Source: Jimgerdemannia flammicorona (Eukaryota). From it: a stretch of 48,538 nt of DNA. Both the position numbers and the translations under genes were made by a program. Positions 991 through 41,871 of this stretch are shown here, piece after piece. The stretch lies in NCBI GenBank assembly GCA_003990765.1, contig RBNJ01000037.1, positions 1-48,538 on the forward strand, in the 5' to 3' direction. The notes under the pieces are model-generated. The model was not told the origin of the DNA, made no database searches, and was given only the letters and a program-made list of their open reading frames with translations. Position 1 is the first letter of the stretch. Every line of letters starts with the position of its first letter.

Positions 991-1883
991 AAACTGACTG
1001 ATCTCTCTGAAGAGGCTTCTCACTGAGGCAGCAACCTTTGCCACTCCTAAGTATGAGCTGTTGCTGTGCACCATCGACTGGGTCTGGAGACACAATGATA
1101 ATGCACCATCGGCTTCAAAATGCCATGCTGTTTTGTATGACATCAACAATATGGTTGCAGGGCGTGATGGTGCGATCCAGCTAGGAGATGGCACATCACG
1201 CGCCTTGATGCTCAAAATGATAATGTACTTTGATCTCACGCTTGTCTGCCTGCATCGATTCAAGATCCTCATGGAGGCAGTTGATACATTTTCGGGGACC
1301 TCTCCACACCGCGTGGCGTTCTGCTATCAAGCCTGCAAGAATACCATATGCCCTATGGGCCATCCATCTGTACGTTGCCAGGTGTGTTACAATGTCAGTC
1401 TCGATCGAAAGTCGGTTCTCAAGTGGTCGTTTTGGAAGATGGCCAGGTTGTGAAAGTTACACTGTGGGCTCCACCACAGACAGCATGGCTTTCCGTCCCT
1501 GGGATGACAGTTCACAACAATACGTGAATGGGACATTATCTTTGAATCCATTGACAGCAATGGCGTTTGTAAGATTGGGCTCGTTGGAGAAGAATTCCCA
1601 AATCTTGATGCTGAATTGGCAACTCGGCCATATTCATGGGCTTTCTCTCTGACAAGACCAACTAATTGTTGGCTTATCAAACCCCATGATGCAACCACGG
1701 TTACGGTCAACGCATTGTGAATAGTGATTCATAACCTTTCATTTAACATGAATGACCGTACCTGTGCTAGTTTGATCAACGGAATCAATTATGGGACAGC
1801 CTGGAGCAATCTCTCCGAGAGGGTGTACCTTGCCGTGAGCTTATATCGAAATTGTAAGTATCATAAAGGATCGTCGAGACTGA
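991..1883 (+). pseudogene. BTB-BACK-SPRY paralogue A, 5'-truncated (BACK and SPRY part only)
   Basis: Translates LTDLSEE..., LLCTIDWVW..., FDLTLVCLHRFKIL, MNDRTCASLINGINYGTAWSNLSERVYLAVSLY, collinear with the intact copies; several deletions and frameshifts; 5' part replaced by AT-rich DNA. Confidence 0.88.
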
Positions 1884-2770: not shown

Positions 2771-3265
2771 ATGAACATGGCCGAGCAATCCGACAGCGGT
2801 CTTAGTCTCAGGGACGACATTGCCTCCATCTGGAAGGACCCAACCTACCACGACGTGACCATTGTCTGTGCTGACGGTATCGAGCTTGTCTGATTTCGAT
2901 TCTCTTACTCTGTCCATGAGAATTTTCACACTGATTCATATGATCTCAAGGCGATGCTGTACGGAAACATGTGAGAGGGTTCCTCTCACCTCGTTGTCCT
3001 CAACGACATAACCTCCGCGGTGCTCAACATCGCCTTCGGCTTTATTTACACCGAGGCCATCGAAAACACCGTCAATGTTTCCATCGCGGTAGGAATATAC
3101 CGCGCAGCAAACTTTCTCCTCCTTCCCAAGCTCATGAAGATGGTGCTGGAACGCATACACGACCTCGCTGATTTTGGTATAGCCTCATCGCTTCTCAACG
3201 AAGCCGTCGCCGCCATCGAAGCCAATAAGGACCTCTACGATGGGCTCTTCAACCCCTTCCGCGAG
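2771..3265 (+). pseudogene. BTB-BACK-SPRY paralogue B, 5' half only
   Basis: MNMAEQSDSGLSLRDDIASIWKDPTYHDVTIVCADG then ...AVGIYRAANFLLLPKLMKMVLER...; exon 1 donor deleted, in-frame TGA, breaks off after NPFR into sequence resembling the 3' flank of copy C. Confidence 0.88.
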
Positions 3266-6031: not shown

Positions 6032-6919
6032 TTACACGCGCATGACGCAAGCCCACTTGCTCAGGTTAAAGTTTTCTTGCAGGAGGAAGTTCTTCTTCCC
6101 AAGTTTGACATTCCACTTCACACCATTCTTGTCTGTCTTGAAATTTCCAAACTCCACGGGCACCGTTCAGCGTTCTCTTCGTTCTCGTTGTCGACCTATG
6201 CGTTGATGAGCGGGTCGGAGATGGCTTCCATCGGCTCGTGGCCAAGGACGCTGATCATCGCATCGGCACCAAATTGGCCGTTGGGTGAGCGCGGGTATTG
6301 GTTGCCCGAGCATGTGCTAAGGGCATTGCGTTGTCGAGTCGCCGATGAAGGCGTACTGATTGGCTTTGTAATAGGAGTGATAGCCACACATGCGAGAACA
6401 AAAGCCGTTAGGGTGACGTCGGGCGAGGTGTACACGACGTAAATAACGTTAGGGTTTGATGGTAGAGTGTTACGCTGAATTGCGCTTGACACCACGTTGT
6501 GGATAGCGTTCTGTGTCAGGTTTTTGCCCTGACTGTAGTTGTCGGAGTAGGAGATGTAGCCCCTGACATATTGCTTCTGTCGGATATGGTAATATTCCTT
6601 CTCGATGTTGAAGTACGCGGACGAGGGAGAGATGGTCGATAAAATAGGTAAACAGGTTTTTGGCGGACTCCAGTTGCCGTAGTAGATCTGGTAAACTTTG
6701 ACCGGGCCTATCATGACCGGGCCGCCTTGTATGGTAGGTTGATTGGGCCGTCGGAGGCGAAGCTCTTAGCGTGGCTAACGTTGATGGTTGTACCGATGAC
6801 GCCCATCGGGCCCAGGGTCACGTTGGTCTCGGGGACCGGAGAAAGGTGAGTGGGGCGCGCGGTGGCGGTCGGGGTAAGAGAGTGAGGACGGAGAGGGAGA
6901 GGATGCTGAAGGCCTTCAT
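6032..6919 (-). pseudogene. PHI-1/EXORDIUM-like (phosphate-induced protein 1 family) secreted protein, disrupted
   Basis: Signal-peptide-like start MKAFSILSLSVLTLL; motifs GPVMIGPVKVYQIYYGNW, YSQGKNL, IYVVYTSPDV, SPNGQFGADAMISVLGHEPMEAISDP..NA*, ENAERCPWSFG, FLLQENFN; TAG at the conserved Trp (6196-6198) and frameshifts. Confidence 0.8.
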
Positions 6920-13769: not shown

Positions 13770-15103
13770 TAGAATAGTAAAATAGGTAATAATTTATCTA
13801 TAAGTATAGAATATTTTATCACTGTTATAAATTGATAATAAGTTAAAGAGATAGAAAAATATTACTCTATATAGAATTCTAAAAAGTAGTAAAGTAAATA
13901 ATATATATAGTTATAGAATATCTTTCTGTAAAAAATTATTTAGTTAATATATGAGATAGTTTATAAGTAATTAAACTTTATAGTTATAAAGAGTTTGTCT
14001 AGAGAATATAAGCTATTTAGTTAATAATATCAGAATAGATATATTTTTCTATAAGAAGACTAATTATTATCATAAATATATTAAGAAGAAAAGTTATATT
14101 TAATAGTTAAAGTTAGTACTTTCAAATAAATTAAATTGAGGATTTTTTTAATTTGAATTGAGTTTAAATTGAATCAAGTTCAAATTAAATTAAGATCTGA
14201 TTTGATTCAATTTAAATTGAATTGAGGTCTGATTTAATTTGAAATTTTTACCCCAACTTTAAAATGTAATAACTCAATAAAAATAAATCCAAATTTAATA
14301 TTCTTTATTATACTAGATTTACTAATATGTAAGATATATTTAATAAGCTAAAATTTATTAAATTTAGATATATTTTGATCAAGTTATTGAATTTTGAAAA
14401 ATTAGATTCAAATTAAACTTTGAATTAAATTGGACCTTAATTTAATATGAATTTGATTAAATTACATCTTAATTCAAATTAAATATTTTGAATCAAATCA
14501 AATTGAGATCAAATTAAATTAAATTTGATTCATTCTGAGTACTAGTTAAAGTAAGCAGAATATCTTTAAAGAAGTAACAATCTATATATAAATATAGAAT
14601 ATTTTATTACTACTAGAAATAATAATATGTTAAAGAGATTAATAATACTATTCTATATAGAATAACTCTCAGAAAATAGTAAAGTAAATAATATAGTCAT
14701 AGAATATCTTTTCATTATAAAGTATCTAAATAATATATATAAGATAATTTGTAAGTAATTGAACTTTATAGTAAGAATATAAGTATATATGAAAAAGAAA
14801 AGTCTGTCTAGAGAATATAAGCTACTTAGTCAGTAATATCAGAATACAGATATACTTTTTCATAAGAAAACTAATTCTTATTATAGGTATATTAAGAAGA
14901 AACCTTATATATTTAATAGTTAGAATAGACTAAATATCTTTAGAGGAGTGATAACTTATCTATAAGTATAAATTATCTTACTACTACTATAAATTAATAA
15001 TAAGTTAAAGAGGTAAATAATATTGTCTCATATAGAGTAACTTTCAGAAAGTAGTAAAGTAAATAATATAGTTACAAAATATCCTCTCATTAGAAAGTAT
15101 CTA
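13770..15103. repeat. Decayed AT-rich tandem repeat, ~350-380-bp unit, ~2.5 copies, interrupted by a MITE
   Basis: GTCTAGAGAATATAAGCTA..ATATCAGAATA and AGTAAAGTAAATAATATA blocks recur in units ~13770-14113, ~14553-14920 and partial 14921-15103. Confidence 0.75.
14114..14544. mobile_element. hAT-like palindromic MITE (copy 2, more decayed)
   Basis: TAGTACT...AGTACTA ends; 8-bp TSD GTTAAAGT at 14106-14113 and 14545-14552; internal layout matches the element at 181-554. Confidence 0.85.
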
Positions 15104-16620
15104 TATTATCGCTGCCAAAATTAACGGAATGGCCAATAGCATAGTTGGTCGCTGATTACAGGCAAAATACCACATGCAGGTAATATATGCTGCTTTGACA
15201 TTGGACGTTTTATTATAATTTGTAGCCTCGACCTCACCACTAGAAACTAACAGTAAACATATACCTTTACAAGCATATAATACATACACTGCTTTCTTAT
15301 TTGTAGTTCCGAGAACAGGATAAATATATACCGTGGAATCTGACCTGCAAAGGCGGGAGGGAGTCACTTTGTTTTTATTATCCCATTGTCCAGTACAAAC
15401 AAGAAAACCGAGGTGATGATTAGAAGAAGGCTGTACAAGACGTCTCATTCCTTTGCTTTTCTAAGCGATTTTGTGTAATTGATAGCAAATCAAGATCCAG
15501 AACAAAAACCAATGGGCCACACAGCTAATAGATCTTATTTTCCTCCTTTTCCGCCGTCCCTTCTTTTTCCCTTCCTCTTTTGTTTTCCCCACAAATGTTT
15601 GCCCGACGTCCTGCGTAAATGCACATGTATATACACTCCCCGCTGCTATCCTGGTTTCGATCAATAATATGACGAAGATTGGATCACAATTGATGCGGCT
15701 ATGTCGCATAGTATAGAATTAACCACTCCCCTAGCCCACTTTCCCACCACACACGAACCCATTCTTGGTGACGACGTCAATTCCAAAGGGTGGGCGCTGC
15801 TCAAACATATAGTGGAAAGGGAACAAGAAGCTGTCAGAAATAAGGGAAGGTCCGGTTTGACGGCGATCGGGTGCGGCTTCCGGTGGCCCGTTATCGACAG
15901 GCGTCCAAACGGAATTGTCAGCATCGGAACCGTGGATGAGGGTTGGTAAGAGGGCCTATATGTGGTATGGAAAAGGCAGAGCACTGTTCGGAGGACGGTC
16001 ATGGTTTGAACAGAAAGAGTTGCGTGACGGAATTCTATGGTGATTCACCAACTCAGAGAAAAATGCTCGTGGGCTTGGGCATTTGGACACCAGTCAAATT
16101 GTCAGATGGTGGTGAGTCAAAATATTTAACGGTATGTCTTCTAGGCTATAACGCTCAACCATAATGGTATAACACGTATCAAAATCAGCGAGAGTGATTT
16201 GTAAGATAACAAATCCATGTCAACGCCACTGTGGACATATTGGCTGGTACTCATTAATAAAACTAGGAGATTGTTCCTTGCCCATGATTCTGAAGGTCAG
16301 TCGCTAGTCTTGGTTAAGCGTTCGGCCACGCCTAGTCAGGGTATTTTAAACTGCGTGAAATGTACTTCTGGTGTGACATAATATACCAGAGCTCGAACAC
16401 TAGAATCGGTATTTATTGTATCGACATTCAATTGTTGTTTGTCACCAGCAATATTTAAGGTGAATACAAAATATACACCAGCTGATTGTTACGATATGAG
16501 CAAAAGAAAATGGTTATAGATACAATGTATACAACCCATGAAAATGTTAAGACGTACAACTTAGGCTTTGGTACAGAACGATGACAGTATTGCTAAGCTA
16601 AAAGCAGATGACCTCATCAC

Positions 16621-18115
16621 TCAGCCTCGACGATCTTTTATCCGATACTTACAATCATTAAATAAGCCTACAGCAAGATACACCTTGTCGAGGCTGTCCC
16701 GTAATCGACTCCGTTGATCGAAAGGGCACAAGTACGGTCATTTAGGTTTAAATGCAATGTTATGACATCGCCATTTTCAATGCGTTTGCCGAAATTGCGC
16801 TGCCTTTTTTTATCCCACCATGCTATTTGCTCGCTATACCGAGATGAGAAAGCCCATGAATATGGCTGTTTTGCCATCTCACAATTAAAGCTTGTGAATT
16901 CTTCTCCAATTAATCCAATCTCACAGATGCCGTAGTTGGCACGCGATCCAATAAATTCAACGACAATGTCCCATTCGCAGAGATCGTTGTGAACCTTTGT
17001 CCCAGGGACGGAAAGCCGTGCTGTCTGTGGCGAAGCCCCCGATGGAAGCTCCACAATTTGGCCATCGTCCGAAACGACCACTTGCGAACCGACTTTCGAT
17101 CGATCCCACTGAAGACTGACATCGTGCCTCGTCTTCCCGCGACGTGCGGGCGGATGGCCCGTAGGGCATACGGTATTCTTGCAGGCGTGATGGCAAAACG
17201 CCATGTAGTGTGGAGAGGTCTCCGCAAACGTGACAATTGCCTCTGCGAGGATCTTGAGTCGATGTGGACAGATGAGCGTGAGGTCAAAGTTACTCATCAT
17301 TTTGCGCAGCAAGCCGCGCGACGTGACATCTCCTAGCCGGACCGCGCCATCGAGCCCCGCGACCATATCGTTAATGTCACGTAAAACAGCACGGCGCTCT
17401 AAAGCCGACGGCACATTATTGTTACGTGCCCAGGCCCAGTCAACGACGCACAGCAACAAATCGTGCTCGGGGGTGACAAGGGTTGCTGCTTCGGTGAGGA
17501 GAAGCTCGAGGGCCTCTTCGGAGAGGTCGGTCAGCTCGCCGATGGCGAGCTTGTGAGTGCGGAAGGGGTTGAGAAGCACATTGTAGAGGTCTTTGTTGGC
17601 TTCGCTCCAAGGGATGGCGGCGACGGCCTCGTCGAGGAGCGATGAGGTGACACCAAAATCAGTGAGGTCGTGCGCGCGTTCGAGCACCATCTTCATGAGC
17701 TTTGGGAGGATGAGAAGTTTGCTGCGCGGTATATTCCTACCGCGGTGGAAACTTTGACGGTGTTATCGATAGTTTCGGTGTGAATAAAGCCGAGGACGAT
17801 GTTGAGCACTGCGGAGGTGATGTCGTTGAGGACAACGCGATGAGAAGAACTCTCTCGCGTGTTTCCGTACAGCATCGCCTTAAAGACTGGGCACCTTATA
17901 GGAGATTACACGAATCAGGGTTGTAGAAAATGCTACGAAAAACAACGGATATAACTAAACTGTAATCGGACAAACCTTGAAGCCAGTACGGCACGACAAG
18001 CGCCTAGCTCGACACCGTCAGCGCAGACGATGGTCACATCGTGGTAGGTTGGATCCTTCCAAATGGAGGCGATATCGTCTCTGAGACTAAGGCCACTGTC
18101 GGGTTGTTGGGCCAT
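16621..18115 (-). pseudogene. BTB-BACK-SPRY paralogue C, full length but frameshifted
   Basis: Same two-exon structure as D and F; 1-bp deletion near 17715 (AANF then out of frame) and ~13-bp deletion near 16690 removing WHNLP; first ATG changed to ATA. Confidence 0.85.
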
Positions 18116-18676
18116 GTTTATAAAATCAAGGTTCTGTTTGAAATGGTTGAGGTGCGATTTCAATTTGGATCGTGGCGCAGCGTGGACAAGGTTGGTGATG
18201 TCGTGTAATTAAGATGTGCAAATGTCGAGATATCTGCATCGTCGATACAGCACACGGCAAGAGGAGCACACCGTGGAGCATCAAACGCATCGCATCGACC
18301 CGATGACATTAGCGCCGCAAGTTGATGTTTGTTCACATGAGCAGTTCATCTAGCATATAGCATAAAAACACAAACTCTTCACCAGTTCGACTATTCTCCT
18401 CTCCAACAGGATGGCAATACCAGGCCAAGGAAAGTCTCCGCTGTGGTTTTATTTACTGATATTGATTAATCAAATCAGAAGCTCGTGCTCTTGTGTTCCT
18501 TGCTCATGATTCTGTCAACTTTATTAGTAAAATGTATTCAAATAGAATTTCGATCATTCAAACATTCATTGCGGATGCTAGTTGGTCAAGTGTTTGGTCC
18601 CACCAGGATGCCATTAGCATTTGTGGGTATTTAAACTGCAATTGAAGTTGATATTGAAATTTATCCTGCAAAGTCC

Positions 18677-18708
<32 letters not shown>

Positions 18709-18902
18709 AAAATAGCTTGAATATTTGAAATTTACATCTGATGATGAAACAGAACAATTTATTGTCGTTAACAGTACTACTTAAAACAAATTAAACAAAA
18801 TTCAATTTAGATATGAGTCAATATGAATATCTATTAATACAATGTCTACAACTTAGGCTTTAATACAGAGTGATAACAGTATTCAAATTTCGTCATTCGG
18901 CC

Positions 18903-20406
18903 TCAATGATCTTTTATCCGATACTTGGATAGTGGAAATAAGGTCACGGCAAGATACACCTTGTCGGGGAGATTGTGCCAGGCTGTCCCGTGATTGACTC
19001 CATTAATCGAAAAGGCACAGGTATTGTCATTTAGATTTAAATGCACAGTTACGATATCGCCATTTTCAATACATTTGCCGTAATCGTGACGTTTTGCTCG
19101 ATCCCACATACATGAATTGTTATTGTACGATTGCAAAGTCCATGCGTATGACCGACCTGACATGTTACTATCAAAACGTGTGAAATTCTCTCCAATGAGC
19201 CCAATCTCACAGATGTCGTACGTGTCAAGCGATCCAATGGATTCAACGACAATATCCCATTCGCAGAGATCGTTGTGAACCTTTGTCCCAGGGACGGAAA
19301 GCCGTGCTGTCTGTGGCGAAGCCCCCGATGGAAGCTCCACAACTTGGCCATCGTCCGAAACGACCACTTGCGAACAGACTTTCGATCGATCCCACTGAAG
19401 ACTGACATCGTGCCTCGTCTTCCCGCGACGTGCGGACGGATGGCCCGTAGGGCATACGGTATTCTTGCAGGCGTGATGGCAAAACGCCATGTAGTGTGGA
19501 GAGGTCTCCGCAAACGTGTCAATTGCCTCTGCGAGGATCTTGAGTCGATGCGGGCAGACGAGCGTGAGGTCAAAGTGACTCAGCATTTTGAGTAGCAAAG
19601 CGCGCGACGCGCTATTTCCTAGCCGGACTCCGCCTTCGCACCCCGTAACCATATCATTGATGTCATGCAGGACAGCACGGCGCTCCGAAACCGATGGCGC
19701 ATTCTCGTTGCGTCCCCAGACCCAGTCGACGACGCACAGCAACAGGTCGTGCTCTGGCGTGGCAAGGGTTGCTGCCTCAGTGAGGAGAAGCTCGAGGGCC
19801 TCTTCGGAGAGGTCTGTCAGCTCGCCGATGACAAGTTTGTGAGCGCGAAAGGGGTCGAGGAGTACTTTGTACAAGTCCTTGTTGGCTTCGCTCCAAGGGA
19901 TGGCGGCGACGGCCTCGTTGAGGAGCGATGAGGTGACACCAAAATCAGTGAGGTCGTGCGCGCGTTCAAGCACCATCTTCATGAGCTTTGGGAGGAGGAG
20001 AAAGCTTGCTGCGCGGTATATTCCTACCGCGATGGAAACGTTGACGGTGTTATCGATGGTTTCGGTGTGAATAAAGCCGAGGACGATGTTGAGCACTGCG
20101 GAGGTAATGTCGTTGAGGACAACGCGTTGGGAAGAACTCTCTCGCATGTTTCCATATAGCATCGCCTTGAAGACTGGGCACCTTATAGGAGACCATATGA
20201 ATTAGGAGTGTGGAATTGCTACGAAAACAATGGACACAACTAAATCGAAATCGGACAAACCTTGAAGCCAGTATGGCACGACAGGCGCCTAGCTCGACAC
20301 CGTCAGCGCAGACGATGGTGACATCGTGGTAGGTGGTGTCCTTCCAAATGGAGGAAATGTCGTCCCTGAGACTAAAACCGCTGTCGGATTGCTCGACCAT
20401 GTTCAT
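18903..20406 (-). CDS. BTB/POZ-BACK-SPRY(B30.2) protein, paralogue D, intact (exons 20406-20261, 20181-18903; 474 aa); putative Cullin-3 substrate adaptor
   Basis: BTB: YHDVTIVCADGVELGACRAILASR|CPVFKAMLYGNMRESS..VVLNDIT..; BACK-like LSEEALELLL..EHDLLLCVVDW; SPRY: LQWDRSK..VVSDDG, WDIVVE..EIGL, YGKCIENGDIVTVHLNLNDNTCAFSINGVNHG..NLPDKVYLAVTL; 79-nt GT-AG intron keeps the frame. Confidence 0.9.
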
Positions 20407-20590
20407 AAAAGCAAGGTTCTGTTTGAGATGTTTCGGTTACAGATGGTGCCCTTCTATTCCGAATCGTGGCGCAGCTCCGGCAAGGTTTATGATGTCATGG
20501 CTAAGTTACGCGGCACATGAACCTAATTATTATATATATGTGCAAATGCCTGCAACGCATCTCATCGTTACAGGTTGATGTAAATTAAAT

Positions 20591-20710
20591 TGTGTAAGAG
20601 AATCGGATTCGGGCAAACCTTGAAGCCGCACGCGCTCAGCTTGACACATTAGGTCCTTCCGATGGCGTCACTGAAACTAAAACCGCTGTCGCATTGTTCG
20701 ACCATGTTAT
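20591..20710 (-). pseudogene. Relic of BTB paralogue exon 1 and intron start
   Basis: Reverse strand reads ATGGTCGAACAATGCGACAGCGGTTTTAGT...GCTTCAAG|GTTTGCCCG, matching exon 1 and its donor with internal deletions. Confidence 0.75.
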
Positions 20711-21264
20711 TAAAACAGCAGAAATAAAGGGGTTTGCACGAGATGGGTGATGTGCGAAAGAAATCGTGAAAAGGGGGGGGGGGGGTTGTCAACGTTAATT
20801 TCTAGTGCAACCAAGAATAATGAAGGAATGCAAGGAACATATTGACGAAGCGAAAGAGAATGCTAAGATCTTAATCATAAACTCTATCCACAATTCGATC
20901 ATTCAAACAGTCATTGGAGTGCCAGTGTTCAGCCCCGCCAGGCGGCCTTCGGCGCTTACGGGTTAGCACGTTTGAACTGTATGGAATATGCGATTGGAGT
21001 TCGGCGTCCCTAATTCTGGATCGAATGTATCTCGGATATTAGAATTTCAACGAAGAGACAGGAATGTTTATTGTGTTAAATTCAATTGCCGTTTTGTCGA
21101 CAGCACTACTTAAGGTGAAAATATCTAAAAAAAAAAAACATGACAGCTTATAACTAAGATATAAGCCAAAAATATATAGCGACAGCTACAATGCATCCTA
21201 CTAATTAAAATGATAGGACAATACAGCATAGGCTCTTGTAAAGAACGATGACAGTATTGAGAAA

Positions 21265-22762
21265 TCACCCATGACGATCCTTTATCCGATATTTGCATAG
21301 TTCATATAAGGTCACGGCAGGGTACACCTTGTCAGGGAGATTGGACCAGGCTATCCCATGATTGGACCCGTTAATAGAAATGGTACAAGTATGATTATTT
21401 ACATTTAAATATAACGTTATGACATCGCCATTTTTAATACGTTTGCCGTAGTCGCGATAATTTGAATGCGAAATTGAACGGTTGACGTTGCTGGTTCTTA
21501 GGAAAGTCCATGCATACTGTCTAGTTACTATTTGATCACTAAAATTTGTGAACTCCTTTCCAACGAGTCCAACCTCACAGATATCATGCAAACTCATGGA
21601 TTCAACGACAATATCCCATTCGCATAGATCATTGTGAGCCTTTGTCCCAGGGACGGAAAGCCGTGTTGTCTGTATTGAAGGCACCAATAGAAGCTCCACA
21701 ACCTGGCCATATTCCGAAACGACAACTTGGGAACCGACTTTCGATCGATCCCCCTGGAGATTGAGATTGAGATGTGCCTTTCCGCGATTTGCGGACGGAT
21801 GACCCGTAGGGCATACGGTATTTTTGTAGGCGTGATGGCAAAACGCCACGTATTGTGGAGAGGTCTCTGTAAACGTATCGATTGCCTCCACGAGGCTCTT
21901 GAGGCGATGCGGGCAGACGAGTGTGAGATCAAAATGGCTCGTCATTTTAAGAAGCAAGGCGCGCGACGCGCTATCTCCTAGCCGGACTCCGCTTTCGCAC
22001 CCCGTAACCATATTATTGATGTCATGCAGGACAGCACGGCTCCGAAGCCGATGGAGCATTCTCGTTGCGTCCCCAGACCCAGTCGACGACGCACAGCAAC
22101 AGATCGTGCTCTGGCGTGGCAAGGGTTGCTGCCTCAGTGAGGAAAAGCTCGAGGGCCACTTCGGAGAGGTCGGTCAGCTCGCCGATGGCAAGTTTGTGAG
22201 CGCGGAGGGGGTTGAGGAGTACTTCGTACAGGTCCTTGTTGGCTTCGCTCCAAGGAATGGCGGCGACGGCTTCGTTAAGAAGCGATGAGGCAACACCAAA
22301 ATCGGCGAGGTCGTGTGCGCGATCCAGTACCATCTTCATGAGCTTTGGAAGGAGGAGAAAGTTTGCTGCGCGGTATATTCCTACTGCGGTAGAAGTTTCG
22401 ACGGTGTTGTCGATGGTTTCGGTGTGAATAAAGCCGAGAACGATGTTGAGCACTGCGGAGGTGATGTCGTTGAGGACGACGCGATGAGAGGAACCCTCTC
22501 GCATGTTTCCGTAAAGCATCGCCTTGAAGACTGGGCACCTTTAAAGAGACCACAAGAATCAGATATGCGGAAAATGTCACAAAATATGACAACTAAACTG
22601 TTTAAGAGAATCGAAATCGGACAAACCTTGAAGCCAGTTCAGCACGGCACACGCCTAGCTCAACACCGTCAGCGCAGATGATGGTCACATCGTGGTAGGT
22701 CAGATGGAAGCAATGTCGTCCCTGAGACTAAGATCGCTGTCGGATTGTTTGACCATGTTCAT
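21265..22762 (-). pseudogene. BTB-BACK-SPRY paralogue E, frameshifted
   Basis: 10-bp deletion in exon 1 (ASI-stop) and a frameshift near 22040; otherwise collinear with D and F. Confidence 0.88.
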
Positions 22763-23231
22763 AAAATCAAGAGAAATAAAAGGTGTGATGTCGGCTGTGC
22801 AAAGTGCTTGTAGGTATGAATTGTGGCGCAGCGTCGATAAGGACCAAATCGTTGAACACACATTCGATACATTTCGTATGTTAAAATGTTGAGATATCTG
22901 CATCGTCGTTGCAGCACAGAAAGAGGAGTACACCGTGGAGCATCCAATTCATCGTATTGCATCAGCGCCGCAGGTTGACGTACATTGTTCACATGGGCAG
23001 TTCATATAATATAAAAACATAACCTCTTCGCCAGTTCAGAATTCGAACACTAGACTTCTCAGAAAATTATTCAATCACCGTTTTGTCGACAGCACTATTT
23101 ACGTTAAATATATCTAAAGGACACAACAGCCTACAGTTAAGATAGCCAAAAATCATGGCCACAGCTACAATCTATAGATACAACATAGGATTTGGTACAG
23201 AACGATGCCAGTATTGCTAAGCTAAGACCAT

Positions 23232-24747
23232 TCAATCTCGGCGATCTTTAATCCGATATTTGCAATGTTCATGTAACGTCACGGCAGGGTACACCTCGTC
23301 GGGGAGATTTGTCCAGATTATCCCATGATTGAATCCGTTGATCGAAAGGGAACAAGTATGATCATTTACGTTTAAATGCAAGGTTATGACATCCCCACTT
23401 TTAATCCGTTCGCCGTATTCGCGATATTCTGCGTGAGAATATGAACGTTTGGTGTTGTTGTGGGTTAGGAAAGCCCATGCATACGGCTGGCATGCTATTC
23501 GACCACTAAAATGTGTAAATTCCTCTTCAACAAGCCCAATCTCACAAACACCACGCGATCCAGTGGATTCAACAACAATGTCCCATTCACATAGGTCATT
23601 GTGAACCTTGGTCCCGGGAATGGAAAGCCGTGCAGTTTGTTTCGAAGTCCCTGATGGAAGTTCTACAACCTGGCCATCTTCCGAAACGACTACTTGAGAA
23701 CCGACTTTCGATTGATCCCACTGGAGACTGATATTGTGGTGCGCCTTTTCGCGATTTGCGGACGGATGACCCGTATGGCATACGGCATTATTGCAGGCAT
23801 GATAGCAAAATGCCATGTAGTGTGGAGAGGTCTCCGCAAATGTGTCGACTGCCTCCGCGACGCTCTTGAGTCGATGCGGGCAGACGAGTGTGAGATCAAA
23901 GTGCCTCATCATTTTAAGAAGCAAGGCGCGCGACGCACCATCTCCTATACGGACTGTGCCTTCGCACCCCGAAACCATATCGTTGATGCCATGAAGGACA
24001 GCACGGCGCTCCGAAGCCGATGGCGCATTCTCGTTGCGTCCCCAGGCCCAGTCGATGACGCAGAGTAACAGGTCATGCTCGGGCGTAGCAAGGGTTGCTG
24101 CCTCGGTAAGGAGAAGCTCGAGGGCCTCTTCGGAGAGGTCGTTCAACTCGCCGATGGCAAGCTTGTGAGCACGGAAAGGGTTGAGAAGCACGTCATAAAG
24201 GTCCTTGTTGGCTTCGCTCCAGGGTATGGCGGCGACAGCTTCGTTGAGAAGCGATGAGGTAACACCAAAATCGGCGAGGTCGTGTGCGCGTTCCAGTACC
24301 ATCTTCATAAGCTTTGGGAGGAGGAGAAAGTTTGCCGCACGGTACGTTCCTATTGCGGTGGAAATTTCGACGGTGTTGTCGATGGTTTCGGTGTGAATAA
24401 AACCGAGGATGCTGTTGAGCACTGCGGAGGTGATGTCGTTGAGGACGACGCGATGAGAGGAACCCTCTCTCATGGTTCCGTAAAGCATCGCCTTAAAGAC
24501 TGGGCACCTTTTAAGAGACCATATGAATTCAGGTGTATGTAAGTGGAATGAAAAACGACGGATACAATCAAAGTGTGTAAGAGAATCGATATCGGACAAA
24601 CCTTGAAGCCAGTACAGCACGGCACGCGCCTAGCTCGACACCATCAGCGCAAACGATGGTCACATCGTGGTAGGTAGGGTCCTTCCAGATGGAGGCAATG
24701 TCATCCCTGAGACTAAGGCCGCTGTCGGATTGGTCGACCATGTTCAT
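23232..24747 (-). CDS. BTB/POZ-BACK-SPRY(B30.2) protein, paralogue F, intact (exons 24747-24602, 24507-23232; 473 aa)
   Basis: Same motifs as D; GT-AG intron 24601-24508; spliced length 1422 nt, in frame. Confidence 0.9.
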
Positions 24748-24929
24748 AAAATAAAGAGAAATAAAGGTTTCTATTTGAGATGGTTGAGGTGCTACAACGG
24801 AAAATTTTTCGCCCTAATTAATTATGTCACGCCTCGGAACTTGCCACAATTTTTTCTATTTATAAATAGCTGGCACACAGCCTAACCCCAACAAACTAGA
24901 AGGTATGAGGTGGCGAAACATACAAAACT

Positions 24930-26190
24930 CCATCGCTAGTCACCGCGAAAATATCACTCATTCTCCAAGCTCACCGATGCCCTCCATGAACCCACCCACG
25001 AAAAGGACGCCGCCACGCCTGTGTCATGAGTGACTGTAAGACCATGTTCCCAGAGCGCGCGAACGACTCGGCAATATCCTAGGCGAGTTGGGCGTCTTGC
25101 AGCTTAGACCGTATCTAGTATGGATATCGCCGGATCTATTTACAGAAAACGAGAGGCTGGGACAGGGTGGATTCTCGACCGTGTATAGGGGAATCCTGGA
25201 TGATGCCAAAGTTAAGAAAGTATATAGATGGTTTGGAGCGGTGTTTTGTGTTGAAGGAGTTGAGGCGCGGTATGACCCACGAGGTTCGTGGTAATATTTA
25301 ATCGATTTAGAGGAATTTTCCGCTAGTTGCGGATATGTTTTCTCATGCTTGAGAGAATTTCATTTCGCTTGGTTTCTCTGCAGTTGGCATTGAACGTTCT
25401 TCTAATCGCCGGCTACCGCAAAGAATCCAAAGACGCCTGCCGCGTCATCCCCACAGCACCTCTTTTTGGCCTTACAAAGCATCCCGGCACCCACCAACCC
25501 CTGATGGCCATGGGTATTGCAGATAACGGTACTCTCGGCGATACTCATTTAACAGGTAATATCAACTGGTTTGACTTCGCCGTCATGGCCTTCCGTCTCG
25601 CCGACCACCTCAATAATCTCCACGCGCTCGGTATCCGCCACAGCGACTTCCACCCGGATTATATCGCCTTCACCCAGGACTATTGGATCCTACGCCGCCA
25701 AAGTTACAACCGTCGGGATATACTTCTTTCCAGTAGCCACATAAAACATACCCAACATGCCCATAGGGCTCGGAAAGTTCGTCAACGACGTGTCGGATGA
25801 CAAGGGGGTCTTTGGCGGCATCGACTACTTTGCCTCCGAGGTCTTTGAGAGCAAACAGCAAACTCTCGCCTCGGACGTTTATTGTTTTGCTACACTCCTG
25901 TGGCAGGCCATTGCAGGCGTCCCACCCCGCGGCACCGCCCTCACCGTCTCCGGATCACTGCGCGAGGAGCTCATTCCAGGCACGCCGGCACAATTGATTG
26001 ACGTAATATGGAGATGCTGGAACCGGGACCCGGAACATCAACCAAGTACTCCAGGACTTACAGAAGTGGTGCGTGCGCCTGGGGATCGAAAATTGCAATG
26101 ATCCTGTGAATGGAGCACAGAGCTATGAAGAGGACGCTGAAACAATCGCATTCATTGAAAAGCGGAGGGCAGAGCATGTCAGGCCAATGA
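24930..26190 (+). pseudogene. Tyrosine-kinase-like protein kinase pseudogene
   Basis: LGQGGFSTVYRG (subdomain I), LHALGIRHSDFHP (VIb), IGLGK (VII-like), GGIDYFASE (VIII), ASDVYCF (IX), IWRCWNRDP (XI); intron ~25284-25383; frameshifts and stops. Confidence 0.85.
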
Positions 26191-26239
26191 TACGGCCTCG
26201 GACGAGCAAATAAAGCATTCTGATAAATGTTCAAGAAAT

Positions 26240-27510
26240 GGTTAAAGTACATATCTGGGATCCTGGACCATATATATACAGATATATACAGGCTGATATA
26301 TATGCTATCATACTTTGGAAAGAAGGATTTCATCATATTTATTAATAATTATATATGTAAGATATATATATACTTCCTATCAGTAAAGAGCAAAACACTG
26401 GAGAAATTCAAAGAATTCAAAGTGATCACCAAGAATAAAATAGAACATAAAATATATACTATATGATTAGATAATAGATGTGAATATATCAATAATATAT
26501 TTAGACAATTTCTGAAAAAACATAGTATATAATAATAAATAACAGCTCTCTATATGTTTCAGCAAAATGGCATAGCCAAGTGATTTAACTGTATAGTTGT
26601 AGAAATGTCTCATATAATAATTAATACAGCAGGATTAGGATACTTCTATTGGGCTAAAATAATCAATATAACAATATATATGTAATTAGTGTATTTTTCA
26701 AATACTAAGCAAAGAAGCTAATATATAAGAATAATAATCTCACCTCTGAAGAATTATGAAATAAAATTAAGCCCAATGTATCACATCTATATATATTTAG
26801 TTGTGAAATATATGTTCTTGACAAAAGTAATACCAATTGATATAAATTCAAGCCAAAAGCCAGCAAGCACATATTTCTTAGATATTCTGATACTGGCAAG
26901 ATATATAGACTCTGAGATCTATGTAAGTAACATATTGTCATTTTGTATAATATATAATTTAGAGAAAAAGGAAATAAAGAATTCTGCATAAATATATTAG
27001 TATATATATCTATATTTATATCTATATCCCAGCTAGCATAAGTATAATAACTATCATCAACCTCTCCAATAGTTAATCAAAATTATTTTCAACTACTATA
27101 TATATCTAAGCTAAGATTGCCTAAACTGAGAATAATGAAGATCAAGAATGAAAATGACAGTAGATCTAATACTAAAGATCTTCTATGAAGAATAAGTAAA
27201 ATCATTCTAATGTTCACTAAGAAATTTATTCCAAATTAAGGGGTTATCGAGACATACCAGTAAGCTCTAGATGATAGTAATATCAATACTATGTAAGCTA
27301 TACTGAAGTATATGAATACATATATATTATAATATCTGATAAACCAAATATATATGATAAAGCCATATAATCTCTAGACAGCAAAAAATAGGAATGTGTG
27401 ATAAATGAGGAGTATAATTCACTTATTGAGAATAGTATATAATATCTTATACTCTTTCTACCAAATTACCAAATAATTAGATCAAAGTAGATCTATAGAA
27501 TTAAGATCTA
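26240..27510 (+). mobile_element. Ty1/Copia remnant (integrase to start of RT), heavily C>T/G>A mutated
   Basis: IYIYFLSVKSKTLEKFKEFK...LDNRCEY...FQQNGIAK, and later NEEYNSLIEN..IRSK*IYRIK, the Copia IN core and RT N-terminal motifs. Confidence 0.85.
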
Positions 27511-35370: not shown

Positions 35371-38300
35371 CAGTCACCTTTCACCAGTAACATTCAGGTG
35401 ACACAAGACTTAGGCAATACTTTCAACAATGTTTTTGGTGATAAGCAACTAGCAATATAGAGAGCAATGACCATACAGGTGTACATACTAGGTTGGGTGG
35501 ATCTAGGACCTTTGACTGGCAGCAGGTAAGAAGGGGTTATGACCTGGGGATGGGGGCCTTCGGAGGACTGAAGAATGGAGAAGGCTCTGGAGAGAGACCA
35601 GTATCCAGTGGCAATGGGGGAAGATCTGGTCTCTCAAGCTTTGCAGACAAGGTTAAGGGGAGTGGGTGGCCAGCTGGTACTAGGGCTGGTGCTGCTGAGG
35701 GGAAGGGCAAGATGAGCCTTGGGAGGGGGGGGCAGTGCTCTAGCTAGAAGTGCAGGCATAGGGGCTGGAGGTACTGCAGCTGGGGGTGTGACTATTGATG
35801 AGAGTGTGACAGGGAATCAGGAAAAAAAAAGAGATATAATGGCTGATGGCCAGGTGGGGCAGGGGTTCCCAATATAGAAGGGAGACCTGGCAGATGGTGT
35901 AACAGGACTGGCGGTGACCCCATTGCTCAAGAAGTCAATCTCAGAGTTTGCAGTGACCTTGTGCTTCAGGGGCTTAGCAGTGATGGTGAGGATGGTTCTG
36001 GGGCTTGTTTTGAAGCAGGTGGCTGGGGTGGCCTCGGTGAAGTTCTTGAAGGGTCTGGAGGGGATTGAGGTGGGCTTTGAGGAGGCTGGCCCACTGGATG
36101 AGACAATGAAGACTGGAGTCATGGTTGAGGAGGTGGTGGTCCCCATGGTGTGGTGCTTGTGATGGGACCCCAGAGTGGTACAGCTTCTGGTGAAGGGGGT
36201 GCCCACAGTGATTAAAGAGGAGACTAGGAGGAGGGTGGAGGAGGTGATGATTGAGTACAGTGATGTGGTGGACATCAGCTTTCAGATGTAAGAGGGGACA
36301 ATGATCAGGACAGGCAACATTGATGTCAGGATTTGGCTGGCAGAAAAGGAGGCCACAGGGAAGGCAAGTGACTGGCCTTCTGTGCTGATGTGGGGGGCAT
36401 TCATCTGTAAGATGTTGAGGATGAAGGGGAGTGAGGAGGAGGAGGAGGACTTGTTGGAGGCACTAGAGGAGATGAGTGGAGCTGTGGAGAGGAGGGCAAG
36501 GGCCTGAAAGATATATGAGGAGTTAATGTATCTGGAGGTTGTAGAGGGGAAGCATATCCACATGGACAAGGGGCAGTGGGAGTGGGCACAGGGGCACAGG
36601 AGGCAGAGAGGGCTACTGGTGAGTATGACTGTCAAGGCGAAGAAGAAGGCAGTTAGGGCTGAGATGTCTGGGGGTATCAAAGCCAGTGTCTGGGCTAGTA
36701 AAGGGGTAGGGGAGGTGGAGGTAGGCAAGGAAGGAGATGGGAAGGTGCTGAGCAAGAATCCTTTTACTGATGGCACCTTCGAGGTCTGAGAGCCGGAATT
36801 GGACTCCACTCCCCCCCCCCTCGATCAGAAGGGGCCCGGCTGCAAAGAGAAAGACATCAGAGGATGTGCTGATGAAGGGGGCCCAGCAAGTGTGTTTTGG
36901 GGTCTCTGATGTGGCGAAGGGGGGCCAGGTGGTGGCGGCTGGTGAGGATGAGCTGGTGGATGTCCCTGAGGAGGAGTGGGATGAGGCTGTCAGTATAAGT
37001 GCTGACACTATGATGTTGGATGCAAGATGGCCAGGGACTCCAGAGAGAAGGAGGTAGGAAACTTGCTATAGATGAGCAAGGTGATGGATAACCTTGTGGC
37101 TGATGCATTGGGAGAAGTGGACCTGCAGGTTATGCCTGAGGAGCACTGGGAGTGGATTCTGCATGGTGAGAGAGTGGTGGAGGTGCTGAGGGGGGAGATT
37201 CTTGTGATCCTCTTAAAGGAGGAGAGATATGAGATCAATGAGGTGAGGAAGGCAGAGCTGGTGGTGGCTGCAGGTGAGCAGACAACATACTGCTGGGCTG
37301 AGTGGCATGGTTTGCAGCTCTGGAGGGAGGCCTGTTTGGAGTATCGAGAGGAATTTGAGAAGAGGGAAGATGAGGTGATGGTAGAACTTCTGGGAGGGTT
37401 GGAGGCATGGGAAGCTGGGGAAAGGGAACTAGCTGCTGAATGTGAATTAGACTTGGTGTAGGAGGAGCAGAATGTGGACTTGTAGAGAATGGGATTACTT
37501 TTTAACATTATTCCTTATGAACAGTACAACTAACATTTTCTCTTTAAATGTAAATGGGTTGAATGGCATAAGAACATTTTTACTTGGCTCAAGGGATTGG
37601 AGGCTGATCTCTTTTTACTATAGGATGTTCAGTGTAAGGATGAGGATGATCGGGTGAAGTGGACTAAGAAATGGGGCAGGGCTATTGCTTGGTTTGGAAA
37701 AGTGGTGATTCTGGTAAGGAAGGGTAGAGGTGACTTGGAGGGAATCAGGAGCTGGGGTGACTGCTTGGTCTGGGGAGATTGGCAGTGGCCAGGGTGGGAG
37801 TTGGTGAGGGTTGGCTCTTGCTACTGCCCTGCAGTTAGGGGTGAGAGGATTGCATGGATTGAGGAGCTGCTGGAGGAGGGTGTTCTCTTGGTGGAAGGGG
37901 TTGATATGATTGGGGGGGGGCTTTAATATGGTTTGGGATCAGCATCTAGACCACACTGATGGTGAGAGGAGTGCAGGAGGGAGAAGTAGAGGCCTGGATG
38001 CATGGGAGGAGATGGAGAGGCTGAGCTCCTTAGGAGATATAGGCAGAATATGATGGGGCAACTCCAGGGTCTACATGCATTGGGTGAATGGCTTGGGTAT
38101 AAGGATTGACTGGATTCTGATGGCAGAATGCTGGGGGTCTGATGTCTGGAAGGTATTGGAGGTGGAATGGTGCCCATGGTCTGATCACTGGGGACTATTG
38201 GGACAGGGGCAGTTTGGGGGAAGTGGAGATAGACCCAGACATTGGCACCTTAACTCCTCCTTGCTGGCTGAGAAGGGGTTGTGGGATTCATGGGTAGAGG

Positions 38301-41242
38301 ATATACAGGTGAAAGTTTCTCGCTGAAGGTGTGAGGGTTTATCATTGGGCATCCAGTGGATGAGATTGAAAGAGGCTGCGAGGGTCTATTGGAGAGAGGC
38401 TGGGAGAGAAGCTGGGAGACAGAGGAGGAAGTGCATGAGGTATGCTTTCAGCAGGCTGAGGAGATTGCAAATGGATTGGGCAGGTTGCTTACTTCTGATG
38501 CGGTGGAGGATTGGAGGTTAGTGCAGATTAAATTGGAGATATTGGAACTGCAACAGGTGCTGAGAGAAGAGAAGGAGGTGCATATACAAGGTATGGCTGC
38601 TAGGCTATGGTGGTAGGGACTTGAGGAGGGTGAGCAGCCTACTAAATATTTATCCCATCTGTTCAGTGCTAGGAGGGTGAGACATCAGTGGGATGGAGTC
38701 CTCAATGCTGATGGAGACATAGTATATGGTATGCAACAAATCCTAGGGGTTTTGAAAGAGAGATGGCAGGGTTTGTAGAGTGAGGATGAAGGGGGTGCTG
38801 ATGAGGTGGCTATTGAAGATGCATTAGGGGAATAGAGGCTGCCATAAGTGGCTGGACTGGATGAATTGGCCTTGCCAGTGCAAGGTGAGGAGGTCCAGAG
38901 TGTCCTTGTGGCAACTAAAACTGAAACAGTGCCAGGGGAGGATGGACTACTGTGAGACTTCTGAAAGAAGATGGTCAAGGTCTCTGACATTCTGGGGGAG
39001 ATGACTGCTCTCTGTGATCATATCCTTCAGAGCGGTGAGTAGGTTGGAGAGCAGGACCTTGGGCTGGTGGCTTTATTGTACAAAGACAAGGGGAGGAGAG
39101 AAGACTGGAAGAACTGACAACTAATCATACTTTTGGACATGGACAGGAAGATGGTAACTAAGGTGGTTGTTGCAAGGCTGCAGAAGGTTGCCCAATAGGT
39201 GCTGGGGGAGGAGCAGCGGGGTTTTATTGGAGGCAGGCTTATAAGAGATGGGACTGCTTGGGTGCATGGTGTCATTGAAGGGGCCCAGGCTTATGGCCTA
39301 GATAGAAGGTTGGTCTTTTTGGACCAGGAGAAGGCCTATGACTGGGTCTGGTGGGTTTGGCTGGGCAAGGTGTTGGATCATATTGGTGTTTCTTCTGGAT
39401 TTCAGGCTTCTATGATGAATCTGCTTGAGGGCAGTCGGGTGGTGCTGATGTGTAATAGTCACTATGGTCAGACATTTATCTTGAGAAGAGGGGTTCCTCA
39501 GGGGGACCCCTTGTCCCCTATTCTTTATGCTCTCTCATTGAAACCATTAATGGATAGGATTTGCCAGAAGGTAGTGGGGCTCTCTATCTATGGTATAGTG
39601 TGGAAGGTTGGGGCCTTTGCGGATAATATGGTGGTTGGCCTTGGGTCTGTGGCAGATGTTGAGGCACTTAAGGTAATGGTGGAATGGTATGAGGTTCACT
39701 CTGGGGCAAAGCTCAACTGGCATAAGTGTGAGACTATGATGCTAGGGAATGGACTGGTGGGTGGGGATGTCATTGGAACAATTGTCCCTACTGGTGAGGT
39801 GATATGGTATCTGGGCATCTTTCTCTCTATATATAGTTCTGTCTTGCCATGAGAGCAGGGTGGCTATTTGGAGAGAGGCCCTTCAAGGTTGGGGAGGCTG
39901 CCATATCTCTCTAGTAGGGCAGGTATCAATTCTGAATATATACTGGTTCCCCAAGCTGTGGTATGTGACATACCACCTAAACTTTCCAGCTTGAGTGGTG
40001 AAGAGGCTGACAAAGGTAGCTAGGGATTGGATTTGGGCAGGGAGAAGGTCCCAGATCAGTTGAGATACTCTTGTGACACCGGTGGACAGGAGAGGTCTTG
40101 GCCTTGTAGATTTCCCTAAGAGGTTGTACTGCTTGTGAGCCTGGTGGTTGAAGAGAGTAGCTGAACTACAGAGAGGGGGTTGGGTACTTCTGATGCAGAA
40201 GGTGTGGGAGATGAGAACCTCCCCCCAAGGGTCCTCAGGAGATCTACTCTCTTTGATAGGGCTCAATGGAATTCAGCAGTTATGATTTAAGAGCTTTTGG
40301 TGGGGAGTAGTCGATGGAGCATACAGAATTGGTCTACGCTGGCAAGGCAATAAGGGGGAGGTGTTGTGGGGTCCTCGTATGTGGCAATGGGATAGACTAC
40401 TTCTGGGGGGGTGCTCTACTTATTGCTTTTGATATTAGGGATGGAGTAGAGTGTCAGTAGGGTCTTGGCTGGGACCTTTGGCTGAGTGGTTGGTAGGCAG
40501 TCGGGATTGGCGAGGAGTGGGACTGGGCAGGTATCTGGTCTTGGAGAGCTGAGGTGTAGCAGTGGCTTCCCCCCAAGTTCTGAGTGGTGTGGTGGTGAAT
40601 GCTGCAGAGGAATGTCATGCTGAATTTCTGTACCAGGCATCTGATGGATGGTGGCTGTTTCGACTGTGAGGAGTATTACAATATTGGGCAAGCTGGGGGT
40701 TTGGTGCAGATGCCAGAACATTGGCTGGGAGAGTGTGAGGTTTTGGGGGACTTTTGGGTTGAAATAGGGAATAGACTAGGTGTAGAGTGCAGGCCAGTAG
40801 GTGAAGGGGTTCGCTGGGAGGACTTGAGATCTTGGCTGGTGGGGGGAATGGGTAATAGTTGGCTCACTGTTGGGTGGGTGTTAGCAGTTTGGGTGGGTCT
40901 GGCAGGACATTGGCTATTTGTATTTGAGGAGGGGTGGCAGATGAGTCTGCAGGAGAAGGTTGTAAGGTGGGAGGAGCTGTTGGGGGATCTGTTGACTGAA
41001 TGGTGGATAGGTTGGAGTCCTTCATGGGGACAGCAGTGCAGTTTGGTAGTGAGGATATGTGAACAGAGTGGTGGGAGGGTGAGAATTGTATTTAATAGCA
41101 TAGTGTTTCATCAAGAAGAGGTAGGGAAGAGGGGCCCCCCTAGGGGGATTGGATAGGGGGTGGGTTCATTATATTTATATAGGATAGATGAGTATAATAA
41201 AGGATGAGTCCAAGTTACTATAAAAAAAAAATAAAAATAAAA
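35371..41242 (+). mobile_element. Full-length non-LTR retrotransposon (LINE, L1/Tx1-like; ORF1 ~35500-37460, ORF2 APE-RT ~37517-41156), inactivated
   Basis: 14-bp TSD ATAAGTTTACTAGC (35357-35370 and 41243-41256); A-rich 3' tail; APE motifs SLNVNGL, GSCYCPA, RIDWIL, PWSDH; RT motifs EQRGFIGGR, LDQEKAYD, GVPQGDPLSP, AFADN, YLGI; C-terminal CxxC...EHW..EC. Confidence 0.93.
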
Positions 41243-41256
41243 ATAAGTTTACTAGC

Positions 41257-41513
41257 TATAAGGTGGCTAAGTTATGACTATATTTCTTATAAGTCACTTT
41301 TCAACATCTGTTAAATTTTTGATAATTGCCAAAACTTTAACATTTGTTAAGTTTTCAATATTTATAAATACTTTAACATTTGTTAAAACTTTAATGTTTA
41401 TGAAATATGACTGCTATTTATAAGACTATACTATATTTGGGAATCAGATTCAGATACTATGATTAAATGTCTACTCTTTTAATTTATGTTCCTAATTCAG
41501 ATCAACTATCACA
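41257..41513 (-). repeat. 5' LTR of Gypsy 1, part right of the LINE
   Basis: Matches ~29168-29377; ends TCAACTATCACA. Confidence 0.88.
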
Positions 41514-41870
41514 ATACTAGCAATCTACTTATCAAACTATTTCTGATCATTCTTTCTAGACTCAATTTACCTATATACTCTAAGTATTGATACTATATAT
41601 TAGATATATTAGATATAGTTATTATATATATAAAGGCTTTTATATTACTCAGTATACTATTGATCATATAAAGACTATCTTATTTCAATACTATTATAAT
41701 CTCCTTATTATTCTTCAGACTATATATAGTTACTTTCATTAGATATATATTTATTTATTTATTACTATAGATCATTATTTTGCCAATTAAGAAGAGGTTC
41801 TTTTCTATCTTTAGAGTATATAGTATATTTTGAAAAATACTAACAGGCTCTGTAATATTTCTATAGTATT
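41514..41870 (-). mobile_element. Continuation of Copia remnant 2 (protease C-terminus and GAG-pre-integrase region)
   Basis: Reverse strand NILYTLKIEKNLFLIGK...DSLYM...I*YQYLEYI (decayed WHQRLGH); joins 28942 across the Gypsy TSD. Confidence 0.7.
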
Positions 41871-41871
41871 A

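Follow-up and report, generated by a model that had tools for sequence, protein, structure and literature searches.

A tandem array of BTB-SPRY genes with a variable SPRY stretch in Jimgerdemannia flammicorona, a putative family of Cullin-3 adaptors

Contig RBNJ01000037.1 of the Jimgerdemannia flammicorona assembly GCA_003990765.1 carries a tandem array of genes coding for a BTB domain, a helical region and a SPRY domain, which are alike over most of their length and strongly diverged in one stretch of the SPRY domain. This locus raises two questions, namely what the encoded proteins may do, and whether their variable stretch has been diversified by selection or has simply been left to drift. 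We address both in positions 1-48,538 of the contig (the window, 48,538 nucleotides (nt) long, to which all coordinates refer). Our best explanation, which we consider moderately probable, is that the live copies of the array (units D and F) would act as dimeric substrate adaptors of a Cullin-3 (Cul3) ubiquitin ligase, as suggested by the closest relatives of their BTB domain, with the SPRY face of each paralogue selecting a different substrate. The specificity would be set by the diverged segments that follow the W-D-I-V-V-E strand, together with the loop before the last strand, and the cluster would evolve by tandem duplication, by gene conversion of the scaffold (halting at the variable stretch) and by frequent gene death.

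Array layout, intact genes and pseudogenes

The array is formed by four units (C, D, E and F), placed head to tail on the minus strand at approximately 16630-24747. The start-to-start spacing between the units is 2286, 2357-2368 and 1967-1975 base pairs (bp), and the blocks that they have in common are 64-97% identical, which bears out the tandem array of four ~2-2.4 kb units reported in a preliminary description of this locus (made from the sequence alone); the four peptide strings quoted there are also all found in the minus-strand translations. The intergenic spacers of the array are likewise similar, and therefore it was whole units that were duplicated. All of the units follow the same plan, that is, a short exon 1 (~48 codons, with the start of the BTB domain), a GT..AG intron of 79-94 nt and a long exon 2, and each one encodes BTB, a helical region of ~170 residues and SPRY.

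The intact copies in the window are D and F only, both recognized by their open frames and Pfam matches (and D, additionally, by a structural model). Unit D (18903-20406, minus strand) has its exon 1 at 20261-20406, a GT..AG intron of 79 nt at 20182-20260 and exon 2, with the stop codon, at 18903-20181. Unit F (23232-24747, minus strand) has its exon 1 at 24602-24747, a GT..AG intron of 94 nt at 24508-24601 and exon 2, also with the stop codon, at 23232-24507. The preliminary description missed that the other two units, C and E, are frameshifted pseudogenes, and also that the genes are on the minus strand. Unit C (16630-18121, minus strand, delimited by alignment) is disrupted by the loss of 1 bp in the BTB and of 13 bp close to the C-terminus of the SPRY; its tblastn match is spread over three pieces in three frames, and its SPRY fragment scores 17.9 bits, below the Pfam cut-off. 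Unit E (21265-22762, minus strand, delimited by nucleotide alignment) has lost 10 bp in exon 1, which creates a stop, and 2 bp in the helical region; its open reading frames (ORFs) are split, with the tblastn match spread over two frames and the exon 1 match in two pieces.

Evidence on transcription comes from two public runs of one organism (X1 and X2), whose RNA nature is our guess (neither is on record as RNA). A contig from X1 skips 79 nt, which correspond to the predicted intron of D, and a contig from X2 skips 94 nt, which correspond to the predicted intron of F, in both cases with CT..AC ends on the plus strand (i.e. GT..AG). Therefore, spliced transcripts of D and F, or of near-identical paralogues, exist. 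At the frameshift sites of C and E the contigs have no indel entries, and coverage of the exact sites is not shown, which leaves the frameshifts neither confirmed nor contradicted. Several other contig joints (22536 back to 20259, 17450 to 19905, 22521 to 24601, and 18930 to 21306/21311 with additional letters) are inconsistent with this locus and were not counted as evidence; they probably reflect near-identical paralogues elsewhere or graph chimeras. Additionally, one X2 contig agrees with D up to position 19229 and differs from it beyond that point, a hint that further copies with other loops may exist.

Domains of the encoded proteins

The BTB domain (PF00651, cut-off 20.5 bits) is matched by D with 31.5 bits and by F with 29.8 bits, from exon 2 alone, and it is found in 39 of 40 family members. 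With a profile of the family, the best BTB matches are SPOP (E 3e-17), followed by KLHL22, KLHL3 and KBTBD2, all of them Cul3 adaptors, so that the BTB most resembles those of Cul3 adaptors, which supports what had been proposed. In the profile alignment, the family consensus n-g-M-r-E-s is placed against h-e-M-E-E-s of SPOP (at the M-E-E position of SPOP, D reads N-M-R-E and F reads T-M-R-E), which aligns the methionine of the family to the SPOP Met-233 loop. Met-233 of SPOP and Phe-130 of KLHL11 are described as the hydrophobic residue of the α3-β4 loop that clamps Cul3, with the SPOP loop refolding around Cul3 (PMC3597819).

The matches of the profile reach positions 176-196, beyond the BTB, and with KLHL22 and KBTBD2 the similarity goes on for 50-70 positions into the region which, in these two proteins, is the 3-box/BACK. 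The helical region of the array proteins probably holds a 3-box and is probably BACK-like. In the AlphaFold model, which consists of D exon 2 only (without exon 1), about nine helices follow the BTB, with residues 80-240 at a predicted local distance difference test (pLDDT) score of ~90. The model has a mean pLDDT of 86.7, with helices up to residue 240 and a β-sandwich at 260-425.

The SPRY domain (PF00622, cut-off 26.3 bits) is matched by D with 34.7 bits, by F with 38.8 bits and by a fragment of E with 35.9 bits. The sandwich of the model (residues 260-425) superimposes on the PRYSPRY of TRIM67 with a VIA Z of 22.9 and a root-mean-square deviation (rmsd) of 1.9 over 158 residues, and the matches that follow are RanBP9, Ash2L, HERC1, SPSB3 (Z 19.8), TRIM14 (Z 18.4) and TRIM25 (Z 17.8); the Foldseek matches have E values from 3e-13 (TRIM9) to 1e-11. 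The ORF ends 1-2 residues past the last SPRY strand. With both Pfam domains above their cut-offs in D and F and the SPRY fold matched in structure, the BTB plus SPRY architecture given in the preliminary description stands. Its "highly similar BTB/BACK regions" stand in part: the similarity does (most of the BTB/helical part is 76-98% identical), and the BACK assignment is unproven, as explained below. As a separate observation, the model aligns over its full length (469 columns) with chain KE of PDB entry 9ya0 (447 residues, from the Toxoplasma pre-conoid ring), at Foldseek rank 32 with a template modelling (TM) score of ~0.33 and an rmsd of 15.6; a BTB-helical-SPRY-like architecture may thus exist in a solved apicomplexan structure.

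We infer Cul3 binding from the relatives of the BTB, and we also infer substrate binding by the variable face; several observations weigh against this proposal. Pfam BACK is matched by only one of 40 family members (E = 0.061), and the label "BACK" is therefore unproven; the helical region alone has no sequence match in PDB; and, with the whole model, no BTB-BACK chain appears among the 50 VIA matches listed (all with Z of at least 10.6), a comparison in which the N-terminal part was barely tested. The transcripts of D and F are each seen in just one short contig, from a run that we take to be RNA by guesswork, and near-identical paralogues elsewhere could be the source of these contigs, given that other joints misfit this locus. 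Finally, of six copies the window holds only two live ones (D and F), next to four dead ones (C, E and the relics A and B described below) and one exon-1 relic, so that the family may be decaying here.

Evolution of the variable stretch

The variable stretch comprises 53 codons between WDIVVE and (Y/F)G.(R/C)I, and is far more diverged than the remainder. In D it corresponds to codons 314-366 of exon 2 (19083-19241, minus strand) and in F it has 50 codons (23418-23567, minus strand, coordinates computed from the exon 2 frame), both delimited by codon alignment. Nucleotide identity is 35-71% in a 60-nt window at alignment column 1440. The variable positions are 314-322, 331-345 and 348-366, and again 414-417, and in a set of 12 family members these segments differ both in sequence and in length, so that the variability noted earlier for the array is a feature of the wider family as well. 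Calling the stretch a "loop" is only partly adequate, because part of it is predicted as β-strand (it is modelled as a folded β region, with pLDDT 78-95). All indels inside the stretch are in frame, and conserved anchor residues are kept within it. Judging by residue spacing and SPRY landmarks rather than by a residue alignment, loop D of the SPSB proteins would be matched by 331-345 and their loop E by 416-417. The SPSB ligand site is reported to consist of five loops (A-E) located on the face away from the termini, with Tyr129 (loop D) and Trp217/Gly218 (loop E) among its residues (PMC2923778).

The BTB/helical scaffold (258 codons) is under purifying selection, with pairwise likelihood estimates of omega (dN/dS, the ratio of nonsynonymous to synonymous divergence) of 0.23-0.35, different from 1 with p = 6e-11 to 6e-5. 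Between the intact D and F, omega is 0.23 in these codons (p = 6e-11) and 0.15 in the N-terminal part of the SPRY (SPRY-N, p = 2e-5). The similarity of the units is, additionally, a mosaic: sliding identity shows C and D to be 98-100% identical over ~270 nt ending exactly at the variable stretch, and D and E to be 91-98% identical in another patch. Between C and D, dS is 0.025 in the patch versus 0.46 in the stretch (Fisher p = 3e-4). From the mosaic patches and this contrast in dS it follows that the near-identity is due to gene conversion and not to recent duplication, and the variable stretch is old sequence that escaped conversion.

Within the stretch, the Nei-Gojobori estimates of omega are 0.53-1.05, with dS of 0.46-1.26, raised relative to the BTB part (0.22-0.46). 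These values come close to the pattern that the preliminary description had itself named as contrary to its proposal of diversifying selection, i.e. dN/dS at or below 1 in the loops with equally elevated synonymous divergence. The likelihood estimates are 1.66 (D-F), 1.90 (C-D) and 1.19 (E-F), none of them different from 1 (p = 0.21-0.69), and a four-taxon M0 model gives 1.35 (p = 0.27 against 1). The nonsynonymous/synonymous counts differ between the stretch and the rest of the gene (Fisher p = 2e-4 for D-F, 1.8e-3 for C-D and 1.7e-3 for E-F), and the stretch evolves roughly at a neutral rate, or faster, in its amino acids. Between the intact genes D and F, dS keeps to a uniform level over the whole gene (0.40-0.69), but dN climbs to 0.47 in the stretch, from 0.07-0.08, and the nucleotide divergence K is larger in the stretch (0.37-0.75) than in the adjacent intron (0.22-0.42) in five of the six pairs.

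One explanation of these data, plausible to us without being the one we would expect to prevail, is relaxed constraint only, according to which a tolerant surface region of redundant duplicates drifts neutrally while conversion erases divergence elsewhere. It agrees with an omega indistinguishable from 1, with the demonstrated conversion patches (and the C-D dS being higher in the stretch than in the converted flanks), and with half or more of the copies being dead. It is harder to reconcile with the D-F comparison, where the jump in dN has no counterpart in dS, and with the nature of the region, since a folded β region would rarely tolerate neutral change over ~40 contiguous codons; the persistence of the conserved anchors in the stretch also speaks against it, as do the site-class tests described next, which lean towards an omega above 1.

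Site-class models were used to look for sites with omega above 1, with self-written models of the M1a/M2a type (not codeml), on four sequences of which two are pseudogenes, and in the presence of recombination. In favour of M2a over M1a, twice the log-likelihood difference (2ΔlnL) amounts to 24.0 in codons 314-425, to 14.5 in the stretch taken by itself and to 8.7 in the C-terminal part of the SPRY; in the control made of BTB, helical region and SPRY-N it is 1.85, which is not significant. M1a/M2a models confuse fast sites with selected ones, and therefore a null with an additional class, fast but neutral, was used. In codons 314-425 this null absorbs 9.7 of the 12.0 log-likelihood units gained over M1a, a result which favours relaxed constraint. 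Freeing omega in the fast class still improves the fit in three partitions (2ΔlnL 4.66, 7.48 and 9.24, with chi-square p of 0.031, 0.006 and 0.002), with a fitted omega2 of 7-12 and a rate multiplier near 1. Sites 335, 339, 342, 350-352, 355-359, 361-362, 402 and 416-417 are flagged, the last two being in the loop before the last strand. In the cleanest partition, 3 of 49 null replicates of a parametric bootstrap reach or exceed the observed 4.66; a protein-guided realignment gives 4.57; and without codons 353-366 (the 14 codons of the least alignable block) the signal is lost, with 2ΔlnL of only 1.32. A dual-rate fit to D and F only was degenerate (rate going to 0 and omega to 4e5), and was disregarded.

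These tests bear on a second explanation, adaptive diversification, in which the variable SPRY segments would track changing targets, either foreign (viral, endobacterial or transposon-encoded) or fast-evolving self, and which we consider possible, and only slightly less likely than relaxed constraint. In its favour, M2a is preferred in the partitions containing variable positions and not in the control, a free omega still helps against the fast-neutral null, K is in most pairs higher in the stretch than in the adjacent intron, and all indels of the stretch are in frame; expressed paralogues with other loops may also exist, given the X2 contig that leaves D after 19229. On the other side are the omega of the stretch defined a priori (1.35 overall, and the pairwise values), the bootstrap, the dependence on codons 353-366, the small and recombining set of four sequences, the home-made code and the degenerate D-F fit. 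Omega above 1 in the stretch is, then, suggestive and fragile, given that it relies on four sequences, two pseudogenes among them. Regarding the diversifying selection inferred in the preliminary description, the site-class tests lean towards it (chi-square p 0.002-0.03), whereas omega for the region as a whole is not significantly above 1 and the result depends on the alignment. Diversifying selection is thus possible, an adaptive and immune-like diversification only weakly supported, and an immune role a matter of speculation.

Relatives, known systems and neighbouring sequences

An exhaustive HMMER search returned 229 representatives at E <= 1e-3 and 16 at E <= 1e-30, and 27 of the 41 representatives scanned carry both BTB and SPRY. 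The relatives that could be named (14 of 20 looked up) all belong to Endogonales (Endogone sp. and Jimgerdemannia flammicorona) or Glomeromycotina (Ambispora, Paraglomus, Glomus, Cetraspora, Entrophospora, Geosiphon, Diversispora and Rhizophagus clarus), and are annotated merely as hypothetical or "concanavalin A-like". Identity to the nearest full-length relatives is ~45%. A metagenome scan yielded one locus, covering BTB residues 1-75 only, and a search for short SPRY fragments gave no match. Among the relatives, P0011 joins the same BTB-helical module, with 50% identity to F, to a protein kinase domain, and P0022 (1720 residues) combines a kinase domain with six SPRY domains; modules have therefore been shuffled within this group of fungi. 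Another one, P0005 (a Jimgerdemannia flammicorona "TRAF-like protein"), has an N-terminal fragment of ~70 residues, 70% identical to the helical region of the array, joined to domains of MATH/USP type; its gene model has probably taken in a piece of a pseudogene.

Among known systems, the closest in organization are the MATH-BTB proteins (BATH/BPM, in nematodes and grasses), which also combine a BTB adaptor with a variable substrate-binding domain and also form lineage-specific tandem arrays with many pseudogenes. In rice, 69 MATH-BTB genes and 41 pseudogenes are reported, with arrays mixing both (PMC4091423), and a role of the family in pathogen defence has been hypothesised, "though the evidence is indirect" (PMC1866355). 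The array differs in that its recognition domain is a C-terminal SPRY instead of an N-terminal MATH, in its host (Mucoromycota) and in that positive selection is not established here; no MATH match was found in D, F or the 41 scanned relatives. In the SPSB/GUSTAVUS proteins (SPRY plus SOCS box, adaptors of Cullin-5), of which SPSB3 is among the structural matches, the SPRY is the substrate receptor of a cullin ligase; the array proteins have no SOCS box, and their link to the cullin would be the N-terminal BTB. The B30.2 domains of TRIM5alpha and finTRIM have the same fold and a similar concentration of variability in loops, and for finTRIM significant M2a/M8 tests are reported on 38 paralogous B30.2 sequences (PMC2657112). 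Unlike TRIM proteins, those of the array are without RING, B-box and coiled coil (BTB is the sole N-terminal domain found), and neither selection nor a link to viruses is demonstrated for them. Because they are without MATH, SOCS box and RING, the array genes fall outside the MATH-BTB, SPSB and TRIM families. They also resemble the BTB-BACK-Kelch proteins (KLHL/KBTBD) in the continuation of the BTB similarity into the 3-box/BACK region and in the helices after the BTB (the BACK of KLHL11 is described with eight, the first two being the 3-box; PMC3597819), but have no Kelch repeats and no detectable Pfam BACK.

Overall, the array can be regarded as belonging to a birth-and-death family of putative Cul3 adaptors in Mucoromycota, analogous to the expanded MATH-BTB families. 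BTB/POZ genes are reported as over-represented in arbuscular mycorrhizal fungi and mycorrhizal Mucoromycota (PMC7550596, PMC5909441). A full-text search, judged by title and the start of the abstract, brought up no publication that deals with a BTB-SPRY family in these fungi. To our knowledge, cullin adaptors have been proposed as a non-self recognition repertoire, and never proven to be one, for the MATH-BTB and F-box families. Having recognition loops that vary, a scaffold in concerted evolution and a fast turnover of genes, the BTB-SPRY subfamily would be a concrete entry point for learning which proteins obligate or near-obligate plant symbionts mark for degradation, and would let one ask whether cullin adaptors form such a repertoire in early-diverging fungi. 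A more far-reaching proposal, which we regard as improbable, is that Endogonales and arbuscular mycorrhizal fungi keep a repertoire of BTB-SPRY Cul3 adaptors, with the scaffold kept uniform by gene conversion and the loops diversified by selection, that would act inside the cell and tag changing foreign proteins (of mycoviruses, endobacteria or transposons) for ubiquitination; if true, fungi would thereby have an equivalent of TRIM5/finTRIM and of the MATH-BTB families proposed to serve in defence. If, on the other hand, the variability is drift only, this locus is an ordinary decaying tandem family.

Outside the four units, the window contains further traces of the family. Relic A (1004-1861, plus strand) retains the helical region plus the SPRY domain of one more copy; it has in-frame stops and is 47% identical in tblastn to residues 128-420 of D. 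Relic B (2771-3262, plus strand) is a truncated copy with exon 1 (92% identity in tblastn) and the start of exon 2 (residues 4-112, 80%), and has an in-frame stop. Between D and E, there is a solitary decayed exon-1 relic (20658-20708, minus strand), recovered when exon 1 of F is used as the tblastn query (17 residues aligned, 59% of them identical). These remains, together with the two pseudogenes and the reverse-transcriptase and retrotransposon protease/dUTPase ORFs of the window, would agree with the whole cluster being non-functional debris in a transposon-rich region, in which D and F merely look intact. We consider this very improbable, because the D-F omega values in the BTB/helical codons and in SPRY-N are far below 1, open frames of 424-425 codons have been kept despite a dS of ~0.4-0.5, and spliced contigs exist.

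Two regions of the window have features of retrotransposons. At 36000-42000, around a reverse-transcriptase ORF (39199-39852, plus strand), the guanine-cytosine (GC) skew is 0.34-0.50 and the GC content 0.40-0.53, and this region is probably a LINE-like element (long interspersed nuclear element); its tandem repeats are limited to five small, low-copy arrays (29-85 nt). At 45904-47859 (minus strand), there is a pol fragment resembling that of long terminal repeat (LTR) retrotransposons, with an aspartyl protease, a dUTPase domain (E 4e-26) and the beginning of a reverse transcriptase. No Rfam match was found in the part of the window searched (14000-27000).

Finally, a protein-kinase-like gene lies at 25040-26101 (plus strand), head to head with F and ~290 bp from its start codon, with a match to PK_Tyr_Ser-Thr (E 2e-7) on its last piece and an ORF that extends over three frames (introns or frameshifts). 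A special link of this gene to the kinase domain of P0011 was considered and rejected, since their similarity is only generic (23% identity). At 6196-6765 (minus strand), an ORF matches Phi_1 (phosphate-induced protein 1 conserved region) with E 2e-13.

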